Source: an uncultured Eubacteriales bacterium
GTDB taxonomy: Bacteria > Bacillota > Clostridia > TANB77 > RGIG9151
DNA length: 17,122 nt
Assembly: GCA_964475435.1 (NCBI GenBank)
Contig: CAYYWT010000023.1
Location: 1 to 17,122, forward strand
Reading direction: 5' to 3'
Positions within the stretch are counted from its first letter, which is position 1. Every line of letters begins with the position of its first letter. The position numbers were made by a program, and so were the translations under genes. Of this stretch, positions 2,567-15,417 are shown one piece after another. The notes beneath the pieces were generated by a model, which did no database searches, was not told where the DNA came from, and saw only the letters and a program-made list of their open reading frames with translations.

Positions 2567-3685
2567 ATGAGAAAATATATACCCGCTATTTTTATAGCAA
2601 TACTCTCTATATTTTGCATACTAAATCCACAAAATATGATAAATTCAACAAAATCTTCTCTTACCCTTTGGGCAACAGTAATAGTTCCTTCATTATTTCC
2701 TTTTATGATACTCAGCGACTTAACCCAAAAAACAGCAATTCCATTCATACTAAACAAATTTCTCTCGCCACTAATGAAAATACTTTTTAATCTTCCCGGA
2801 ATTTCATCACTCGCCATTTTTTTAGGAATGACAGGCGGTTACCCAATAGGAGCAAAAATTACATCCGACTTATTAAAAGAAAACTCCATCACTAAAGATG
2901 ATGCAAATCACTTAATAACCTTTGTAAACAATACAGGGCCTTTATTTATGCTAGGAGCCATAGGAATAGGAATATACAAAAATAGTTATGTAGGATTACT
3001 TTTACTCATCTCACATTACACATCTGCAATACTTATCGGCTTTATATGTAAATTTATTAAGTCCAAAAGCGAAATAAAAAACCATAATAACTATCAAATA
3101 TCATTTAACGTAATAAAACTCTCAAATATAGGAAGTATTTTAACCGAAACAATAAAAAAGTCAATTGATACAGTTTTATCAATCGGAGGATTTATAGTTC
3201 TTTTTTCCATAATTTCCTCATTAATAGAGCAAAGTAAAATTTTTTCCTTTATAAAAATTCCGGGACTAACTACCGAAGTTTCGACATCATTTATAACAGG
3301 ACTTCTAGAGGTTACAAATGGAATAAATAAAATAGCAACGGTAAACAATATACCGTTGCTAAATAAGCTAATCATAACATCAATATTAATAGGGTTCGGA
3401 GGAATGAGTATCCACTTTCAAACACTCAGTATAATATGTAATTCACAAATAAGTTTCACAAAATACCTAATCGGAAAAACCGCTCAAGGCATCTTATCCG
3501 GAATAATAACATTCCTTTTATTAAGCTACACCAATTTCGCAAAACTAATTCCACTCAATGTATCCGGTTCATTTGCCATCAATCCAACAGAATTAATACA
3601 AATTCAAAATACATTATTAATATTTTTCATATTTGTAGTAATATTTAAGCTCCTCCAAACACTCTTCCATTATAAACGTCATTAA
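2567..3685 (+). CDS. ylbJ: Sporulation integral membrane protein YlbJ family (nucleoside-recognition/Gate domain membrane protein)
   Basis: The 372-aa protein is polytopic and hydrophobic. The N-terminal LWATVIVPSLFPFMILSDL segment is typical of YlbJ/Gate-domain proteins. RBS GAAAGGAA lies upstream of the ATG at 2567. Confidence 0.8.
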   Translation: MRKYIPAIFIAILSIFCILNPQNMINSTKSSLTLWATVIVPSLFPFMILSDLTQKTAIPFILNKFLSPLMKILFNLPGISSLAIFLGMTGGYPIGAKITSDLLKENSITKDDANHLITFVNNTGPLFMLGAIGIGIYKNSYVGLLLLISHYTSAILIGFICKFIKSKSEIKNHNNYQISFNVIKLSNIGSILTETIKKSIDTVLSIGGFIVLFSIISSLIEQSKIFSFIKIPGLTTEVSTSFITGLLEVTNGINKIATVNNIPLLNKLIITSILIGFGGMSIHFQTLSIICNSQISFTKYLIGKTAQGILSGIITFLLLSYTNFAKLIPLNVSGSFAINPTELIQIQNTLLIFFIFVVIFKLLQTLFHYKRH

Positions 3686-6390
3686 TTACCACAACTACAC
3701 TTTCCGCTTATAGGAACATATCTTCCACAACTACTACACTTACTAGGATAAGCTTCAGCCAAACCGAATACAGTAATCGCCCCCGGCGGATTTCCCAAAA
3801 CAGTTCCCTCTGTTAAAAACGCTTTGCCAACAGACGCATAAGACGCCATCGCATTATTATAATTAGTCTTCTCATCTATATTTCCTGCAAATAAAACAGA
3901 ATTGCCAATTATACTATTTACCTCTTGAGAAACAGAATTATTGTTAATAATATTCGCAAGACCAAGCACTGCATTATTACTATAATCAGTAGTAGTTTTT
4001 ACCGCAGCATATGAAGTATTACCATAGAGCATTTCATCCATACTCTTATTTAAATACAAATGATTATTTAATAAAACTTGAGCAACCGCAGTAGCAAGTT
4101 CAGGCGTATAAGAACATTCACCGTCTACCTTATTAAGTAATATTTTAGCCTGTTCATTAGTAAGCGATACAGTCTTTCCTTTATAACTATACGTTATACC
4201 TTTTCCTTCTTTAAGCAAACTTCTCAATTCATCCGGAGTAATTTTATCATACTTAACATTACTTTCATTTGTTGGCTCGTTATCTTCTTTTGTATACTTA
4301 TCCTCCAATTTATTAGTATCATCAGTAACCGTTGGATATTTACCAAGCACACTACTCTTTGAAGTATCAACATACGGAACACACTTTTCACAAAAATACG
4401 AACCACTATATTTTACAGGTTCAACACACCCATCTGTATCACATAAATGCCAATAACAATACCTCTTTCCATCTACACATCTCTCTCCGCAAAGCGATGT
4501 ATCATCTCCGGAAAATCTTTGAATATTAAACTCACATCTTCTCTCACGTTGAGTTCCTCTAATATTCAAATAATTATAAGCATCAACATTTCGGTGAGAA
4601 AGTGAAAATTGTCTAAAATCTATACAAGTAGCACACCATTTACCATCATTGCAATCAAATACATTAACACCGGTATCTCCACAATTAGGACATTTAGCAA
4701 TATTGAAATTACCATTCTCAGATTTTAATTTATTCTTCCCCATAGCATTATAGCAACTTTCACATATCATCGCATCAGGCTGTATATATGCATAATAAGT
4801 TTGGGTAACTGTTCCATTACAAAAGCTAAATTTCCCTTCACGTTTATCTTTTTCTATTTGTTCTATTATTGTATCTCCGCCATTTGTTGTATATTGTTCA
4901 TAAGGTTGAGTTTTATAAGATTTCACTACCCTACATCCATTCTTATGGGAAGTACAATATTCATTAGCCATACTAACCATATTTTTTTGTTTATCATACT
5001 TTGCTGAATAAGATTCTGAATCTTCTCTCGGAGAATTACAGAAAAACGAATTACACATATGATTAGAACAATAATCCGAATAGCCCCCATCAATAACTGT
5101 AGCATTTCTATTCATATAAATAATCCCTTCATCAACTTGACCAGTATAACGTATTAACTTCGCACCAGAACTAGTATCTGTAATAGCACGTCCCGCAATA
5201 ACCCTTGTACACGTTTGAGGGGCAAAATTTTCTCTGTAATCCGAATGTTCAAGCCATTTCTTACAAGTATGTGCTTCACAAGCAATATACTTATCCCCTT
5301 CAAGTTTTAAATCCGGACATTTTATTCCTTCGTATTCATCAGGTAACGCAACGGGATAATCATAAACAAAACAACAAGAATGTACCGAACAACCTCTAGA
5401 CAAATAAAATTCAGGCACTTCGCCGTAAGTAACATATACATTCAAATTTCCATACCCTGTAGTCATACACCTTTCACAAGTCGAACAAGAATTACAAGCT
5501 AACAAAAATCTATATACCGTTTTCGTTCCTTCTACCAAAGTATCTTCATAAAAGGCTTCGCCTTTTAACGACTTTTTATCAATAGGACTAAAATACTCCA
5601 TTCCGGTTAGCTCCTCTTCAGCCCCAGTCAATTTCGCAGCAGTATGCTTTATATGAGGATTAGAAGTCGAATCAAAAATTTGAAATACCCCGGAATTATA
5701 TAATCTCAACTCTGAATCAACGCTAAAAACTGCCACCCATAAATCAGAACTTGACGGATCAATAGAAGTAACTAAAGCAATGGCAGGAATTCCAACAGGC
5801 ATACCACCACAAACATAATACTCCACCTTACTGTTACTACTTTCTCTAATTTTTTCCTTTTCATAGTTCTCTATAAAACCTAAATAACTACTTTCAGCAT
5901 GCTCACACCATGAAGAATCAGTATATGTCTTTATATTTTTTTCAAACTCATTTTTAGTATATGCTTTATATCTATCATTCGACCAGGAATCTTTATAATT
6001 CGAACACCCTTTTTCATCACACGTAAAACTCCAACCGACCAATTTTTGACTATAATTTTGGATATCCATTCCTTTATGTTCTACTTTAGAATACTTTCCA
6101 TCTTCATTACTAACAAAATCGAGACGACCAGTAATACTATAACCACCTTCTCCGCCATCAATTTCTAAATAATCTTCTCCTCTACAACCATAACTAAAAC
6201 TTTCAAAACCCATACCATTAAAATCTTCAGTAGTAGACGTTAAATATGTATAATCACTTCTACGCTCTGTTAACGTATCTTCCTTATTTTCAGTATTCTT
6301 AGGATCCTTTAAATTAGTATATTCCTCTTTTGCATAACTAAAGTTAAATATAAAACATAACATAAGAAAAGTAGACAAAATTTTTTTCAT
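3682..6390 (-). CDS. Secreted cysteine-rich protein of unknown family (902 aa; multiple CxxC / C-x2-H-x-C metal-knuckle-like motifs)
   Basis: This is the longest ORF in its region. RBS GGAGGG lies 7 nt before the ATG at 6390. There is a Sec-type signal peptide (MKKILSTFLMLCFIFNFSYA|KEEY). I count 43 Cys, of which 32 fall in residues 299-670. I recognise no homology. Confidence 0.85.
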   Translation of the reverse strand: MKKILSTFLMLCFIFNFSYAKEEYTNLKDPKNTENKEDTLTERRSDYTYLTSTTEDFNGMGFESFSYGCRGEDYLEIDGGEGGYSITGRLDFVSNEDGKYSKVEHKGMDIQNYSQKLVGWSFTCDEKGCSNYKDSWSNDRYKAYTKNEFEKNIKTYTDSSWCEHAESSYLGFIENYEKEKIRESSNSKVEYYVCGGMPVGIPAIALVTSIDPSSSDLWVAVFSVDSELRLYNSGVFQIFDSTSNPHIKHTAAKLTGAEEELTGMEYFSPIDKKSLKGEAFYEDTLVEGTKTVYRFLLACNSCSTCERCMTTGYGNLNVYVTYGEVPEFYLSRGCSVHSCCFVYDYPVALPDEYEGIKCPDLKLEGDKYIACEAHTCKKWLEHSDYRENFAPQTCTRVIAGRAITDTSSGAKLIRYTGQVDEGIIYMNRNATVIDGGYSDYCSNHMCNSFFCNSPREDSESYSAKYDKQKNMVSMANEYCTSHKNGCRVVKSYKTQPYEQYTTNGGDTIIEQIEKDKREGKFSFCNGTVTQTYYAYIQPDAMICESCYNAMGKNKLKSENGNFNIAKCPNCGDTGVNVFDCNDGKWCATCIDFRQFSLSHRNVDAYNYLNIRGTQRERRCEFNIQRFSGDDTSLCGERCVDGKRYCYWHLCDTDGCVEPVKYSGSYFCEKCVPYVDTSKSSVLGKYPTVTDDTNKLEDKYTKEDNEPTNESNVKYDKITPDELRSLLKEGKGITYSYKGKTVSLTNEQAKILLNKVDGECSYTPELATAVAQVLLNNHLYLNKSMDEMLYGNTSYAAVKTTTDYSNNAVLGLANIINNNSVSQEVNSIIGNSVLFAGNIDEKTNYNNAMASYASVGKAFLTEGTVLGNPPGAITVFGLAEAYPSKCSSCGRYVPISGKCSCGN

Positions 6391-10773: not shown

Positions 10774-13593
10774 TTAACCAAGTATTTTTTTCAAATACTC
10801 TCCCGTACCGGATTTCTTAACTTTAGCAACCTCCTCCGGAGTTCCTTTTGCAATTACTTGTCCACCTCTTATTCCTCCGTTAGGACCCAAATCAATAATA
10901 TAATCAGCAGTCTTAATTACATCTAAATTATGCTCAATAACAACAACCGTATTTCCGGCATCAGTTAATCTTTGTAATATGCTAATTAGCTTATCTACAT
11001 CCGCCATATGAAGTCCGGTAGTCGGTTCATCTAAAATATACATAGTCTTTCCGGTACTTCTCTTACTTAACTCAGTCGCAAGTTTTATTCTTTGAGCCTC
11101 ACCTCCCGATAATGTTGTAGAAGGCTGACCAAGTTTTATATATCCAAGCCCTACATCATATAATGTTTTTACCTTATTATAAATAGAAGGAAGATTTTTA
11201 AAGAACTCTAGAGCTTCTTCAACAGTCATATCCAGTACCTCGTGAATATTCTTTCCTTTATACCTTACTTCCAGAGTTTCTCTATTATATCTTTTCCCCT
11301 TACAAACCTCGCACGGTACATAAACATCCGGTAAAAAATGCATCTCAATTTTTATAATTCCATCTCCGCTACAAGACTCACACCTTCCGCCACGAATATT
11401 AAAGCTAAATCTACCTTGGTTATACCCCCTCATCTTCGCTTCGTTAGTTTCAGCAAACAACTTTCTAATCAAATCAAACATACCGGTATATGTCGCAGGG
11501 TTAGAACGCGGAGTCCTACCAATCGGCGATTGGTCAATATTAATTATTTTATCTAAATTTTCATATCCTTTTATCTCTTTAACCTTACCAGGGACTAAAT
11601 TCGCATGATTTAACTTATTCGCTAATGTCTTATATAAAATCTCATTAACAAGCGAACTCTTTCCCGAACCGGATACTCCTGTAACACAGGTAAATACGCC
11701 AAGCGGAATATCTACATTTACTTTCTTTAAATTATTCTCTTGTGCTTCTACTATTTTTAAGAAATTCCCGTTTCCTTTTCTACGTTCTTTAGGCACTTCT
11801 ATTTTTAATCTTCCACTTAAATAAGCCCCTGTAATTGAACGCTCATTCGCCTTTATTTCTTCAACATTTCCTTGTGCTATTACTTCCCCGCCATGTATCC
11901 CAGCACCCGGTCCAATATCTATAATCTCATCTGCCGCATACATCGTATCCTCATCGTGTTCAACAACAATTAACGTATTTCCTAAATCTCTTAAATGTTT
12001 TAACGTAGCAATAAGCTTTTCATTATCCTTTTGATGAAGTCCAATACTCGGTTCATCCAAAATATATAAAACTCCTGTAAGACCTGAGCCGATTTGAGTC
12101 GCAAGTCGAATCCTTTGCGCCTCTCCACCGGATAACGTACCCGACGCTCTCGATAAAGTTAAATAGTCAAGTCCTACATCAATCAAAAATTGAATTCTGG
12201 CTTTTATTTCTTTTAAAATTTGATATGCAATTTTTTCTTCTTTCTTCGTCATTTCTAAATTTTCCATAAAGTCTTTTATTTGTAAAACAGACATACTGGT
12301 TAATTCGTAAATATTTTTATTATTAACAGTAACAGCCAACGTTTCCCTTTTTAGTCTCTTTCCTTCACATTCAGGGCAAACGCAATCAGTCATAAGCCCT
12401 TCATAGTACTCTTTCATAGTTTGTGAAGTCGTTTCCTTATATTTTCTCATAAGAGAATTAATAATCCCTTCAAAACTACTCATAAAAGACCCTTGACCAT
12501 AACGACGTTCATATTCTACTTTAATTTTCTCACCCTTGGTTCCATAAAGCAAAATATCCCTTATCTTTTTCGGCAATTCATCAAACGGCGTATCCATACT
12601 AAACTTATAATGCTCCGCCAAAGCTTTTATATACATAGTAGAATACCCTTCCTCATTTCCGGAATTCCAACCTCCGACCTTTATAACGCCCTCATTTAAG
12701 CTTTTATGCGGTTCTGTAATTACTTTTTCAGGATCAATTTCCAATAAACTTCCAAGGCCTAAACATTTAGGACACGCTCCAAAAGGACTATTAAAAGAAA
12801 ATTGACGAGGTTCTATTTCTTCAATACTAATACCGCAATCAGGGCAAGCATAATTTTGAGAAAAAAGCATTTCTTCAGCACCGTTTACATCAACCAAAAC
12901 CAAATTATTAGCCAAAGCACAAGCAGTTTCAACCGACTCAGCAATACGTTTTCCCGCGTCTTCTTTCATAATAATTCTATCTACAACAATTTCAATATTA
13001 TGTTTCTTTTGTTTATCTAACGTTATTTCTTCCTCTAAATCTATAACTTTTCCATCAACTCTAGCTCTTACATATCCGTTTTTTCTCGCATCTTCCAATA
13101 TTTTTACGTGCTCACCTTTTTTCCCTCTTATAACCGGAGCTAGAATTTGAATTTTGCTTCCTAAAGGAATAGTTAAAATATTATCCGTAATTTGATCAAC
13201 AGATTGTTTAGTAATCGGTTTTCCACAATTAGGGCAATGAGGATGACCAATTCGAGCATATAATAATCTTAAATAATCATAAATTTCCGTAACTGTTCCA
13301 ACCGTAGAACGCGGATTTTTACTTGTCGTCTTTTGATCAATAGAAATCGCCGGAGATAATCCTTCTATATATTCAACATCCGGTTTCTCCATAAGCCCTA
13401 AAAACTGTCTTGCGTAAGCAGACAAAGACTCAACATATCTTCTTTGCCCTTCTGCATATATTGTATCAAAAGCCAAAGAAGACTTACCCGAACCGCTAAG
13501 TCCGGTAATTACAACAAACTTATCTCTTGGAATTGTTACATCTATATTTTTTAAATTATTTTCTTTAGCACCTTTTATCTTTATATATTCCAT
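10774..13593 (-). CDS. uvrA: Excinuclease ABC subunit A (UvrA)
   Basis: The 939-aa protein has two ABC ATPase modules (GLSGSGKSS and GVSGSGKSS Walker A, LSGGEAQR signature twice). Zinc-finger CxxC pairs sit in the canonical UvrA positions. Confidence 0.98.
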
Positions 13594-13720
13594 AAAAATC
13601 TTCCTTTCATCTAATTATTGTACCATAAATTCGACAAAAGTTACTATATTTTTTAAAACTTTAATTTTTCATACTGAAGGTTTTACGAAAGATAATATCA
13701 TTAAAATTCCATATTTTTCT

Positions 13721-13726
13721 TATAAT
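13721..13726 (+). promoter_or_regulatory. Possible -10 element (TATAAT) for a plus-strand transcript entering the structured region
   Basis: There is a perfect TATAAT at 13721-13726, about 14 nt before the first hairpin (13740-13758). No good -35 lies at 17-nt spacing; TTAAAA is only 14 nt away. A second weak candidate is TCGACA (13631-13636), 17 nt, TAAAAC. Confidence 0.25.
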
Positions 13727-13734
13727 AATTAAAA

Positions 13735-14360
13735 AAAATATGCACATAATAAGTGCATAAGGGTTTGTGATAGTTGAGCCAAGAGGAATATGGGGCGCTA
13801 AAATCGCTTTATATTTTTCGGTCAAAGGTTTGTACGGGATTATGAAGTTCTATACAAGCCGGCGAGCAGACTGCTTTGGGTAGTGGCAGGTGCTGTCGTG
13901 GGATATCCTCATCACAGTATCGTAAATTATCTCCTGTGGTCGAGCTAAGAGTAGTATTAGTTCCGTAGGTCAATTTGATAAAGAGGGGGCATCCTCCCTC
14001 TTCATCAAAGCTCTTACTTATTTTAAGGGTTATGGCTAACGAGTAATTGCGGTAAGCATGATTGCTATTATTCGTACAGGTACTTTTACTAGTCGAGTAA
14101 AGGTTTGTTGTAGTGGTGTAATGTCAGGTATTAGATTAAAGTTTAATCTCTGATGTGTAACTGCTTAAACAGGCTGTAGCGTAGATTATCCCAAGCTCTT
14201 AGATTACATATTGTTACTATTCAGTCTACTTGTTTTAAAAAGATAATATCATTAGTTTAAAGAGCGAGTCGTACCGGTAAAAAATTCAAAATAAGAATTT
14301 AATCGAATTTTTTACCGAGGACATGTTTGAGCGGGAAAACTAATGATATTATCTTTTGAT
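13735..14360 (+). ncRNA. Candidate large (about 600 nt) structured non-coding RNA, class not recognised
   Basis: - No ORF of 60 aa or more lies in any frame across 13594-14391.
- By hand count, GC is 40% for 13761-14230 versus 18% for 13601-13740, and G exceeds C on the plus strand.
- Discrete hairpins: 13740-13758 (6 bp); 13912-13916 with 13934-13938; 13974-14009 (15 of 16 bp, CAUC loop); 14040-14074 (13 of 14 bp, 3 G-U); 14082-14104 (9 of 9 bp, 1 U-G); 14121-14156 (composite); 14238-14357 (21 bp perfect with a nested 13 bp perfect stem).
- The G-U wobbles become C-A mismatches on the minus strand, so I favour plus.
- The boundaries are approximate. Confidence 0.45.
14238..14357. repeat. 120-nt nested perfect palindrome (possible bidirectional terminator, or the 3' domain of the RNA)
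   Basis: AAAAGATAATATCATTAGTTT (14238-14258) is the exact reverse complement of 14337-14357. Inside it, CGGTAAAAAATTC (14275-14287) is the exact reverse complement of 14305-14317. On the minus strand a U5 run follows the outer stem, 35 nt after the amidase stop. On the plus strand the 3' arm ends in UUUU. Confidence 0.8.
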
Positions 14361-14391
14361 AAGTAATTAAGTCTGACCTGTAACTACATAT

Positions 14392-15417
14392 TTAAAAACT
14401 TTCTAAAATTCCTTGAGCAATAGACTTACCCGCTTTTTCTAAAAAAGCACTATCTTTTAATTTCGCTAAATCTCCTGAGTTAGTCATATATGCAACTTCA
14501 ACAATAACTGACGGCATCTTAGTATGATTTAGTACATATAAATTATTTCTATTTATAATTCCTTTGTTATATGTTCCCGCTAAACTCGAAACAGTATCTT
14601 GCAACTTAGTCGCTAAGCTATACGAGGAAATCCCGTTTTTAACAATTGTACTGGTAGGATATAAAACCTCAGTTCCGTTTATGCTCGATTTATTAGGCAT
14701 AGCATTATTATGCACACTCACAAACAAATCAGCATTTATACTATTAGCTAAATTAGCTCTTGATGCAAGACTGGTCGTAACATCAGTCGTACGTGTCATA
14801 TATACTTTTACACCTTGCTTTTCAAGTTCCTTTTGAACAACTTTAGCTATGGCTAAGTTAATATCTTTTTCATATATTCCGCCATATGTTGCTCCAACTT
14901 CTGTACCACCATGTCCGGCATCTATTACTATTTTTTTATTTAACGCATTAGGATATTTTGTTCTATTAGCATAACTTCTGCTAACTGTTTCAGCTCTTTG
15001 CTTTAATTCCTCATTATTTATTATAAAGTTCACAATTCCGCTATCTTCATGCCATTCCACCTCAGCATCAACGTAATCCGAAATAAATCTTAGCGGAATC
15101 ATAGTAGTATCATTTTTTAAAATTGCCGGAGCATCTAGCTCATAAGTCTCTCTATTTATTGTTACCTTTGTAGAATTAATCGGCAAAATCAATTCACTCT
15201 CATTATTTGTAACGGTAACAACAAAACTCTCGTCCCATTTTACATTACAACCGAAAATCTCGGCAATTACTCTCAACGGCACTAAAATCCTATCATTAAC
15301 AACAACAGGATCTTCCGGCATATTAAAAGTACCCCAATTAAGTCTTACTTCCATTGCTGATGCTCTAGATAAAATCAGTCCTAAAAATACAAGAAAACAT
15401 ATACAGAATTTCTTCAT
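14392..15417 (-). CDS. N-acetylmuramoyl-L-alanine amidase (Amidase_3) with N-terminal copper-amine-oxidase-like (stalk) domain
   Basis: Signal peptide, then a Cu_amine_oxidN1-like segment (VNDRILVPLRVIAEIFGCNVKWDE ... TMIPLRFISDYVDAEVEW). The C-terminal MurNAc-LAA core follows (IVIDAGHGGTEVGA ... LFVSVHNNA ... VIVEVAYMTN). Confidence 0.9.
   Translation of the reverse strand: MKKFCICFLVFLGLILSRASAMEVRLNWGTFNMPEDPVVVNDRILVPLRVIAEIFGCNVKWDESFVVTVTNNESELILPINSTKVTINRETYELDAPAILKNDTTMIPLRFISDYVDAEVEWHEDSGIVNFIINNEELKQRAETVSRSYANRTKYPNALNKKIVIDAGHGGTEVGATYGGIYEKDINLAIAKVVQKELEKQGVKVYMTRTTDVTTSLASRANLANSINADLFVSVHNNAMPNKSSINGTEVLYPTSTIVKNGISSYSLATKLQDTVSSLAGTYNKGIINRNNLYVLNHTKMPSVIVEVAYMTNSGDLAKLKDSAFLEKAGKSIAQGILESF

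Follow-up and report, generated by a model that had tools for sequence, protein, structure and literature searches.

Among the large structured RNAs of bacteria, OLE is ~610 nucleotides (nt) long, ROOL ~580 nt, GOLLD ~800 nt and raiA ~200 nt. Here we describe a block of ~475 nt between uvrA and an Amidase_3 gene of an uncultured Eubacteriales bacterium (contig CAYYWT010000023.1 of assembly GCA_964475435.1), which is a candidate stand-alone structured RNA; the whole stretch analysed, 17,122 nt, is referred to as the window. OLE, ROOL and GOLLD are large ornate bacterial RNAs with structures determined by cryogenic electron microscopy (PMC12286853). ROOL and raiA were discovered in another study (PMC5737381), and the raiA motif RNA is present in >2700 species (PMC12968392).

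The block resembles OLE, ROOL and GOLLD in being a candidate stand-alone, non-coding, multi-branched RNA of several hundred nt from Bacillota, in its GC enrichment relative to an AT-rich genome, in its strong conservation, loops included, and in having a function that is not readable from its neighbours. However, it is shorter and matches none of their covariance models, and whereas those RNAs span hundreds to thousands of species, the block is so far known from one narrow lineage. raiA, an RNA of the abundant type, is likewise a structured stand-alone RNA of Clostridia and relatives, but the Rfam raiA model has no match to the block. The GC-rich intergenic motifs (PMC11109978, PMC8632094, PMC6429828) share its signature, a long GC-enriched intergenic region that is free of open reading frames (ORFs), lies in an AT-rich genome and has a predicted structure. 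Those motifs were named after many representatives with covariation, whereas the block is represented by five distinct sequences only. The 2024 paper on GC-rich intergenic motifs mentions neither uvrA nor the amidase.

In the initial annotation, the region was taken as a single unit of roughly 600 nt. It joins two unrelated elements, a structured-RNA candidate (13739-14213) and an insertion that resembles a miniature inverted-repeat transposable element (MITE; 14213-14384). Because the insertion is absent from relatives, the RNA is ~475 nt rather than ~600 nt in length. An unclassified plus-strand structured RNA is the best reading of 13739-14213, on the basis of its strand-specific folding, its constraint, and substitutions that are compatible with structure on the plus strand only. 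The block is a well-supported RNA candidate, not a proven RNA class.

Folding, constraint and substitutions in the block

The core of the region (13739-14213) folds with -169 kcal/mol on the plus strand, as compared with -122 ± 6 kcal/mol for dinucleotide shuffles (z-score (z) -8.1), and with -97 kcal/mol on the minus strand, as compared with -82 ± 6 kcal/mol for shuffles (z -2.7). The minus-strand value is within the range of the coding controls (z = -0.6 to -2.8). Stability beyond that expected from composition is thus specific to the plus strand. The first folding statistics were inflated because the 172-bp insertion had been included: 13735-14360, insertion stem included, gives -213.8 kcal/mol and z -9.5 on the plus strand, and the minus-strand z is -7.0 with the insertion and -2.7 without it.

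The predicted RNA starts with a 5' hairpin, continues with a helix that closes a multi-branched core, and ends in a short 3' tail that is conserved. Its parts are listed below.

13739-14213, plus: candidate stand-alone structured RNA, ~475 nt, 40% GC, identified by fold, constraint, consensus pairs and absence of an Rfam match
13739-13759, plus and minus: 7-bp hairpin UAUGCAC/GUGCAUA, invariant in the alignment; a 5' stem-loop on the plus strand, terminator-like on the minus strand
13760-14199, plus: closing helix 13760-13775/14184-14199 with ~8-9 enclosed helices, in the minimum-energy and consensus folds
13783-13819, plus: 15-bp hairpin inside the closing helix
13827-13860, plus: hairpin in which pair 13830/13857 changed in a compensatory way, U-A in the window and L105, and C-G in L101, L104 and L085
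13858-14034, plus: central domain of 177 nt with a single variable position (13926) across the variants
13869-13941, plus: long interrupted hairpin
13944-14098, plus: central region that folds as local hairpins or with a long-range helix
14039-14075, plus: hairpin with a change via wobble; 14049/14065 is G-C in the window, G-U in L105, and A-U in L101, L104 and L085
14102-14175, plus: long three-part hairpin
14121-14156, plus: hairpin in which pair 14126/14151 changed in a compensatory way, A-U in one variant group and G-C in the other

Three of the hairpins proposed in the initial annotation (13974-14009, 14040-14074 and 14121-14156) are present in the consensus fold of five sequence variants, the last two with compensatory changes. 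A further one (14082-14104) can form on the plus strand, but a long-range helix (13944-13964 with 14079-14098) competes with it in the consensus fold. The proposed 21+13-bp nested stem at 14238-14357 exists, but is located inside the insertion that is absent from every relative, and is not part of the RNA. The annotation had also assigned the RNA to the plus strand from five G-U wobbles. The argument is strengthened by the plus-strand fold, in which 41 of 170 pairs are G-U and the A.C single mismatches, which would read as G-U on the opposite strand, number only two, but it is not supported by the single-change permutation test alone.

A nonamer of the form A(A/G)GGTTTGT (AAGGTTTGT) occurs three times in the RNA (13759-13767, 13823-13831 and 14098-14106), each copy serving as the 5' strand of a helix. 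Two copies extend into a 25-nt repeat with 72% identity. The nonamer copies may stem from duplication within the RNA or represent a recurring binding site.

The closest relatives that share this gene order were retrieved via the UvrA and amidase proteins from other metagenome assemblies, of gut and digester origin, and form two groups (L085 with L101-L104, and L105-L108); samples that carry the block include SRR33036523, SRR6824178 and SRR22923220. The relatives that carry the block have 97% UvrA and 95% amidase amino-acid identity to the window. In them, the block follows the amidase stop codon immediately, at the same site and with the same boundaries. The window differs from L101/L085 at 18 of 461 bases of the block (3.9%) vs 37-44% of the four-fold sites of the amidase gene and uvrA, and from L105 at 2 of 461 bases (0.4%) vs 29% of the four-fold sites. 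The block is therefore under constraint about ten times that of neutral flanking sites, or more, which indicates purifying selection. It is as constrained as the non-synonymous sites of well-conserved proteins, since codon positions 1 and 2 of the flanking genes differ by 1.8-3.4%. The spacer toward uvrA (13660-13705) is unalignable between the two groups.

The flanking genes are diverged up to the very edge of the block, indicating that a localised recent transfer is unlikely to be the cause of the low divergence. Each locus examined has one copy of the block, several contigs assemble straight through it, and no terminal inverted repeats belonging to it were found.

For the analysis of substitutions, an RNAalifold consensus was computed from the five distinct sequence variants, which represent about three lineages. 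The consensus has 161 pairs, and all of the pair cells across the five sequences (805/805) are standard pairs. Pairing is kept at all 17 variable stem positions in the plus-strand consensus: 11 pairs changed on one side via wobble, and three changed on both sides (13830/13857, 14126/14151 and 14049/14065). A relocation control was needed because the consensus had been fitted to the same sequences. Accordingly, the same substitutions were relocated at random, with base identity and lineage pattern kept, and the sequences were refolded, 120 times. Three double changes were observed vs a mean of 0.26 in the relocated sets (P about 0.008), and five variable columns were broken or unpaired vs 11.8 (P about 0.008). 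When the minus strand was treated in the same way, there were no double changes, and 17 of the 22 columns were unpaired or broken (P 0.69). Moreover, nine one-sided changes keep plus-strand pairs but break minus-strand pairs, and two do the reverse.

A lack of conservation outside the immediate strain, or conservation without covariation, had been named in the initial annotation as evidence that would speak against a structured RNA. The block is conserved across lineages with 29-44% four-fold divergence, and its alignment, of only five sequences, contains three compensatory pairs and none that is broken (P about 0.008).

Gene setting, transcription signals and the insertion

The gap between uvrA and the amidase gene is 798 bp in the window (13594-14391). 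The ORF scan agrees with the earlier statement that no ORF in the gap reaches 60 aa; the longest ones have 54 aa, with TTG starts. The GC contents counted by hand at that stage (40% vs 18%) match the computed values of 40.4% for 13761-14230 and 17.9% for 13601-13740, the whole window having 33.5%. Read on the plus strand, the block has a positive GC skew, and the minus-strand genes on either side have a negative one. A small protein gene was considered and rejected, as the substitutions in the small ORFs, read from the alignment, are mostly non-synonymous. A search of a collection of 5.8 billion proteins for ORFs called over the RNA gave none. A stop-free minus-strand frame of ~105 codons (13809-14125) runs antisense to the RNA core; from its first start codon it would encode only 54 aa, and the collection contains nothing similar to it.

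The genes and signals around the block, and the parts of the insertion, are as follows.

10774-13593, minus: uvrA
13676-13710, no strand assigned: solo fragment like one MITE end (TTTTACGAAAGATAATATCATTA...), with the uvrA promoter region on one side and the predicted RNA promoter on the other
13701-13729, plus: promoter-like site TTAAAA-17-AATAAT, with a perfect TATAAT at 13721-13726; consensus match only
14205-14212 and 14385-14392, no strand assigned: the two direct copies of the 8-bp target-site duplication TACATATT; the right one shares a single base with the amidase stop codon
14213-14384, no strand assigned: MITE-like insertion, 172 bp, 29% GC, absent from L085 and L101-L108; not part of the RNA
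14392-15417, minus: Amidase_3 gene

The window, L101 and L106 each have a promoter-like match at the equivalent position of the RNA strand (TTAAAA or TTAACT, a spacer of 16-18 nt, and AATAAT). Matches of this kind do not outnumber those in shuffled sequences. The sequence from ~13706 onward is conserved in all variants, and the RNA is predicted to start in the A-run at 13730-13738. The arrangement proposed earlier, a plus-strand RNA convergent with the amidase gene, is borne out, but the sole terminator-like signal is on the other strand, where the window, L101 and L106 all have it. Because this site lies beyond the block, transcription of the amidase mRNA in the relatives probably continues, in antisense direction, across the entire RNA gene. 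uvrA probably starts from its own promoter region after termination of the amidase mRNA. The uvrA-proximal region (13594-13658) is the only part of the gap that is common to the 95%-identity relatives without the block. By eye, it contains on the uvrA strand an extended -10-like sequence, TGGTACAAT, and an imperfect LexA-box-like sequence, AACTTTTGT.

Beside uvrA and Amidase_3, the window encodes RelA/SpoT, YlbJ, SpoIVB, a SleB-like hydrolase and an M14 peptidase, a gene set typical of a spore-forming member of Clostridia. These 17 kb show no partner gene of the oapA type, no tRNA and no prophage context. A minus-strand ORF of 902 aa (3682-6390) has no Pfam-A or NCBIfam match. The block coincides with a break in synteny: amidase gene, RNA and uvrA stay together, while the genes outside this trio are not the same in the window and in the relatives. 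The amidase gene is preceded upstream by the M14 peptidase in the window and by hisS in the relatives; uvrA is followed downstream by the SleB-like hydrolase, HI0933 and SpoIVB in the window and by csp, dpaA and spoIVA in the relatives. In general, close relatives show strong rearrangement of gene order (window vs L101, L102, L105, L106, L082 and L086-L091).

The insertion has imperfect terminal inverted repeats (GTTAC...AAAAGATAATATCATTAGTTT and AAACTAATGATATTATCTTTT...GTAAC) and folds into a 21-bp outer and a 13-bp inner stem. Its inverted-repeat arms comprise 26 nt at 92% complementarity, with AAAAGATAATATCATTAGTTT as the best part, and extend with gaps to the GTTAC/GTAAC ends. In L085 and L101-L108, the empty site is uninterrupted; it differs by 2-6 bases, leaving the insertion borders uncertain by a base or two. 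Terminal inverted repeats, a target-site duplication and an empty site in relatives, three features expected of a MITE, are thus present for 14213-14384. In view of these features, and of its absence from all relatives, we do not count the insertion as part of the RNA. MITEs are likewise small, AT-rich and non-coding, with inverted repeats that form a long hairpin, an 8-bp direct repeat and presence or absence between close relatives, and they break assemblies; here, no autonomous parent element or transposase was identified. The insertion hairpin, together with a T-run on the amidase strand, may be the present amidase terminator.

A 20-mer of the MITE end occurs three times in the window vs 0.02 expected. 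Partial copies of the insertion end are located at 13688-13707 of the window, 10661-10680 of L105 and 7541-7560 of L106, and in another intergenic region at 3769-3796 of L105 and 649-676 of L106. The solo fragment is present in the window and the L105-L108 group; L085 and L101 have other sequence in its place. The three independent contigs L105, L107 and L108 all end inside the solo fragment, as repeats cause, and L001, the only contig with exactly the amidase of the window, breaks inside the insertion. The data suggest a multi-copy repeat family of MITE ends in these genomes, of which only partial copies are seen. A composite transposon that carries the RNA was rejected, as L105 and L106 have the RNA with the left repeat fragment only. 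In viral contigs, the MITE repeat had a single match, in a giant-virus bin, which looks like chance.

Known families and distribution

The Rfam search called for in the initial annotation was run, and no known family was matched. With Rfam 15, the whole window gave 0 matches at gathering thresholds, and cmscan of 13550-14450 (901 nt) at E up to 10 gave only seven chance matches to microRNA, small nucleolar RNA and short small-RNA models, mostly on the MITE hairpin. The OLE, ROOL, GOLLD, raiA and HEARO models had no match at either setting. There was no match to the models of RNase P RNA, tmRNA, SRP RNA or 6S RNA, and ARAGORN predicted 0 tRNA or tmRNA genes in the window. The group I and group II intron models had no match either, and the block is intergenic, not within a gene. 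The OLE partners oapA, oapB and oapC are not among the neighbours in the 17-kb window (uvrA, Amidase_3, M14 peptidase, SleB-like hydrolase, SpoIVB and RelA). The earlier check by eye, which had seen no features of RNase P, tmRNA, SRP or 6S RNA and had noted the lack of oapA, the usual companion of OLE, agrees with Rfam, ARAGORN and the list of neighbours.

Several functional types were also rejected. For a riboswitch or other cis-regulatory leader, the next gene on the plus strand is the amidase gene, which is on the opposite strand; the minus-strand fold is not significant, and uvrA occurs without the block in close relatives. A CsrB-like protein sponge does not fit, as the hairpin loops contain no GGA motif. 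No loops with kissing-loop self-complementarity, as for homo-oligomerisation, were found.

At the equivalent sites of the next relatives, the block is missing. Upstream of uvrA, relatives with 95% and 82-83% UvrA identity have no block and have other neighbours. Downstream of the amidase gene, the 87% relative L091 has a 182-aa ORF and rpsB, the 66% relative L092 has uvrC, and neither has the block. The ORF of L091 (6712-7260), at the position of the RNA, has no Pfam family and is followed by rpsB and tsf. Among 80 uvrA loci from species-representative genomes (GTDB) of other Clostridia, with UvrA identity of up to 73%, no homolog was found by nhmmer, blastn or a covariance model. The covariance model of 13866-14034 found only the known copies in 1.24 Mb of loci.

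Metagenomes and viral contigs were scanned with degenerate 24-nt patterns taken from the open frames of the RNA region, six per scan. Two scans of the JGI metagenomes (12 degenerate patterns) revealed no relative, and neither did two pattern scans and two exact oligomers in viral contigs. A phage or plasmid origin was rejected, as blastn in distant mode gave no phage match, and plasmid matches were only to short AT-rich stretches outside the block. The distribution of the block is likely narrow.

Weighing the explanations

We consider it fairly likely that 13739-14213 is the gene for a stand-alone plus-strand structured RNA of ~475 nt that acts via its fold or as a ribonucleoprotein. The initial annotation had likewise proposed a stand-alone plus-strand RNA that is not a leader of uvrA. 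That proposal is supported in part: folding and substitutions favour the plus strand only, and uvrA is found without the block in relatives, but the 3' quarter of the proposed RNA, with its most striking stem, is MITE-like insertion. In the model we favour, the RNA would be driven by its own promoter at ~13701-13729, would begin with the small 5' hairpin followed by the closing helix 13760-13775/14184-14199 around the multi-branched core, and would be directed toward the 3' end of the amidase gene. It would act in trans as a compact tertiary fold or a ribonucleoprotein, like OLE, ROOL, GOLLD, raiA and RNase P RNA. Such action seems most likely, and simple base-pairing with a target less so, because nearly every base is constrained, including loops and junctions. 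We infer the promoter, the transcript ends and the action in trans from sequence.

Several points weigh against a plus-strand structured RNA. The share of G-U pairs, 24%, is high for a functional RNA. A permutation on the minimum-energy fold of the window, with the same mutation spectrum, gave no excess of pair-preserving single changes (3 broken vs 3.9 expected), and energy-based permutation tests on the observed substitutions are not significant; the latter were set aside as too noisy because G-C to G-U changes cost energy. The structural support rests on three compensatory pairs, the refolding test, and five sequences from about three lineages. No homolog was found beyond the close relatives, in searches that are blind to copies elsewhere in the relatives' genomes and to homologs below ~85-90% identity. 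In addition, terminator scans of the window and the relatives found no plus-strand terminator-like signal downstream of the block, and the sole terminator-like site in the gap, the 7-bp hairpin at 13739-13759 followed by T7-8 (T8 at 13730-13737 in the window), is on the amidase/uvrA strand.

These terminator findings are what would be expected of a cis-antisense or convergent element, in which the plus-strand transcript pairs with a long 3' untranslated region (UTR) of the amidase mRNA and controls its stability, or in which a collision barrier shields uvrA from read-through. In support of such an element, the terminator-like site is at the far end of the block and conserved in the window, L101 and L106, and the block directly follows the amidase stop codon in relatives. 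We nevertheless regard it as unlikely. Pairing is automatic for overlapping transcripts and does not need an elaborate fold (z -8.1), compensatory changes or near-invariant loops; furthermore, in the window the MITE hairpin with its T-run now stands between the amidase gene and the block, which has nonetheless stayed intact, although the insertion may be recent. The block could also be read from the other strand, as a structured amidase 3' UTR or as a long attenuating uvrA leader that ends at the terminator 13759-13730. The order of structured block, terminator and uvrA resembles a small-RNA gene or an attenuator, and the position directly after the amidase stop codon fits as well. But the minus strand folds no more stably than the coding controls do, the substitution test is null on that strand, one-sided changes favour plus-strand pairs by nine to two, and uvrA of the 95%-identity relatives keeps the proximal 65 nt upstream without the block, so that a minus-strand RNA appears improbable.

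The two remaining explanations concern the origin of the sequence. Conserved mobile or recently transferred DNA, or a DNA-level site, would have no RNA function, and the low divergence would reflect recent spread or gene conversion. The synteny breakpoint, the absence of the block from the equivalent sites of the next relatives, the MITE-related sequences on both sides and the narrow lineage are consistent with this explanation. It is nonetheless quite unlikely, given that the site and boundaries are the same in all three lineages, with flanking genes diverged up to the boundary; that the block, present in one copy per locus examined and assembled through by contigs, has no terminal inverted repeats of its own; that its strand-asymmetric fold, with 41 G-U pairs, is unlike a DNA palindrome; and that compensatory changes are present. 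As to RNAs already described, the initial annotation had left the choice between a divergent member of OLE, ROOL, GOLLD or raiA and something new. The Rfam nulls favour the new and disfavour the divergent member. A very divergent OLE, ROOL, GOLLD, raiA, HEARO, RNase P, or group I or II intron RNA that the covariance models missed would have size and ornate branching in the observed range, and a host in Clostridia, where several such RNAs occur; as none of them was listed for the 901 nt at E up to 10, and the gathering thresholds gave 0 matches, we judge it very improbable.

A plus-strand structured RNA therefore remains the preferred explanation, and the block is probably a new RNA family, although a small one. 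The further proposal, that it is the first member of a new class of large structured RNAs in bacteria (~475 nt) that is unrelated to OLE, ROOL, GOLLD, raiA or any Rfam family, and that has a compact tertiary fold or forms a ribonucleoprotein with a function new for RNA in spore-forming Clostridia, has in our view about an even chance of being correct.

The locus also bears on how such candidates are assessed: a long hairpin that stands out next to a structured RNA can turn out to be a MITE, which makes the candidate look larger and its folding statistics better than they are. Large ornate stand-alone RNAs are rare in bacteria, and OLE, ROOL, GOLLD and raiA have each led to biology that was not expected, such as RNA-only cages and membrane-associated ribonucleoproteins (PMC12286853). 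If the preferred explanation is true, a new, unrelated RNA with every base under selection would be a tractable target for structure determination and genetics, and such RNAs could be confined to a narrow uncultured lineage and missed by broad comparative searches.

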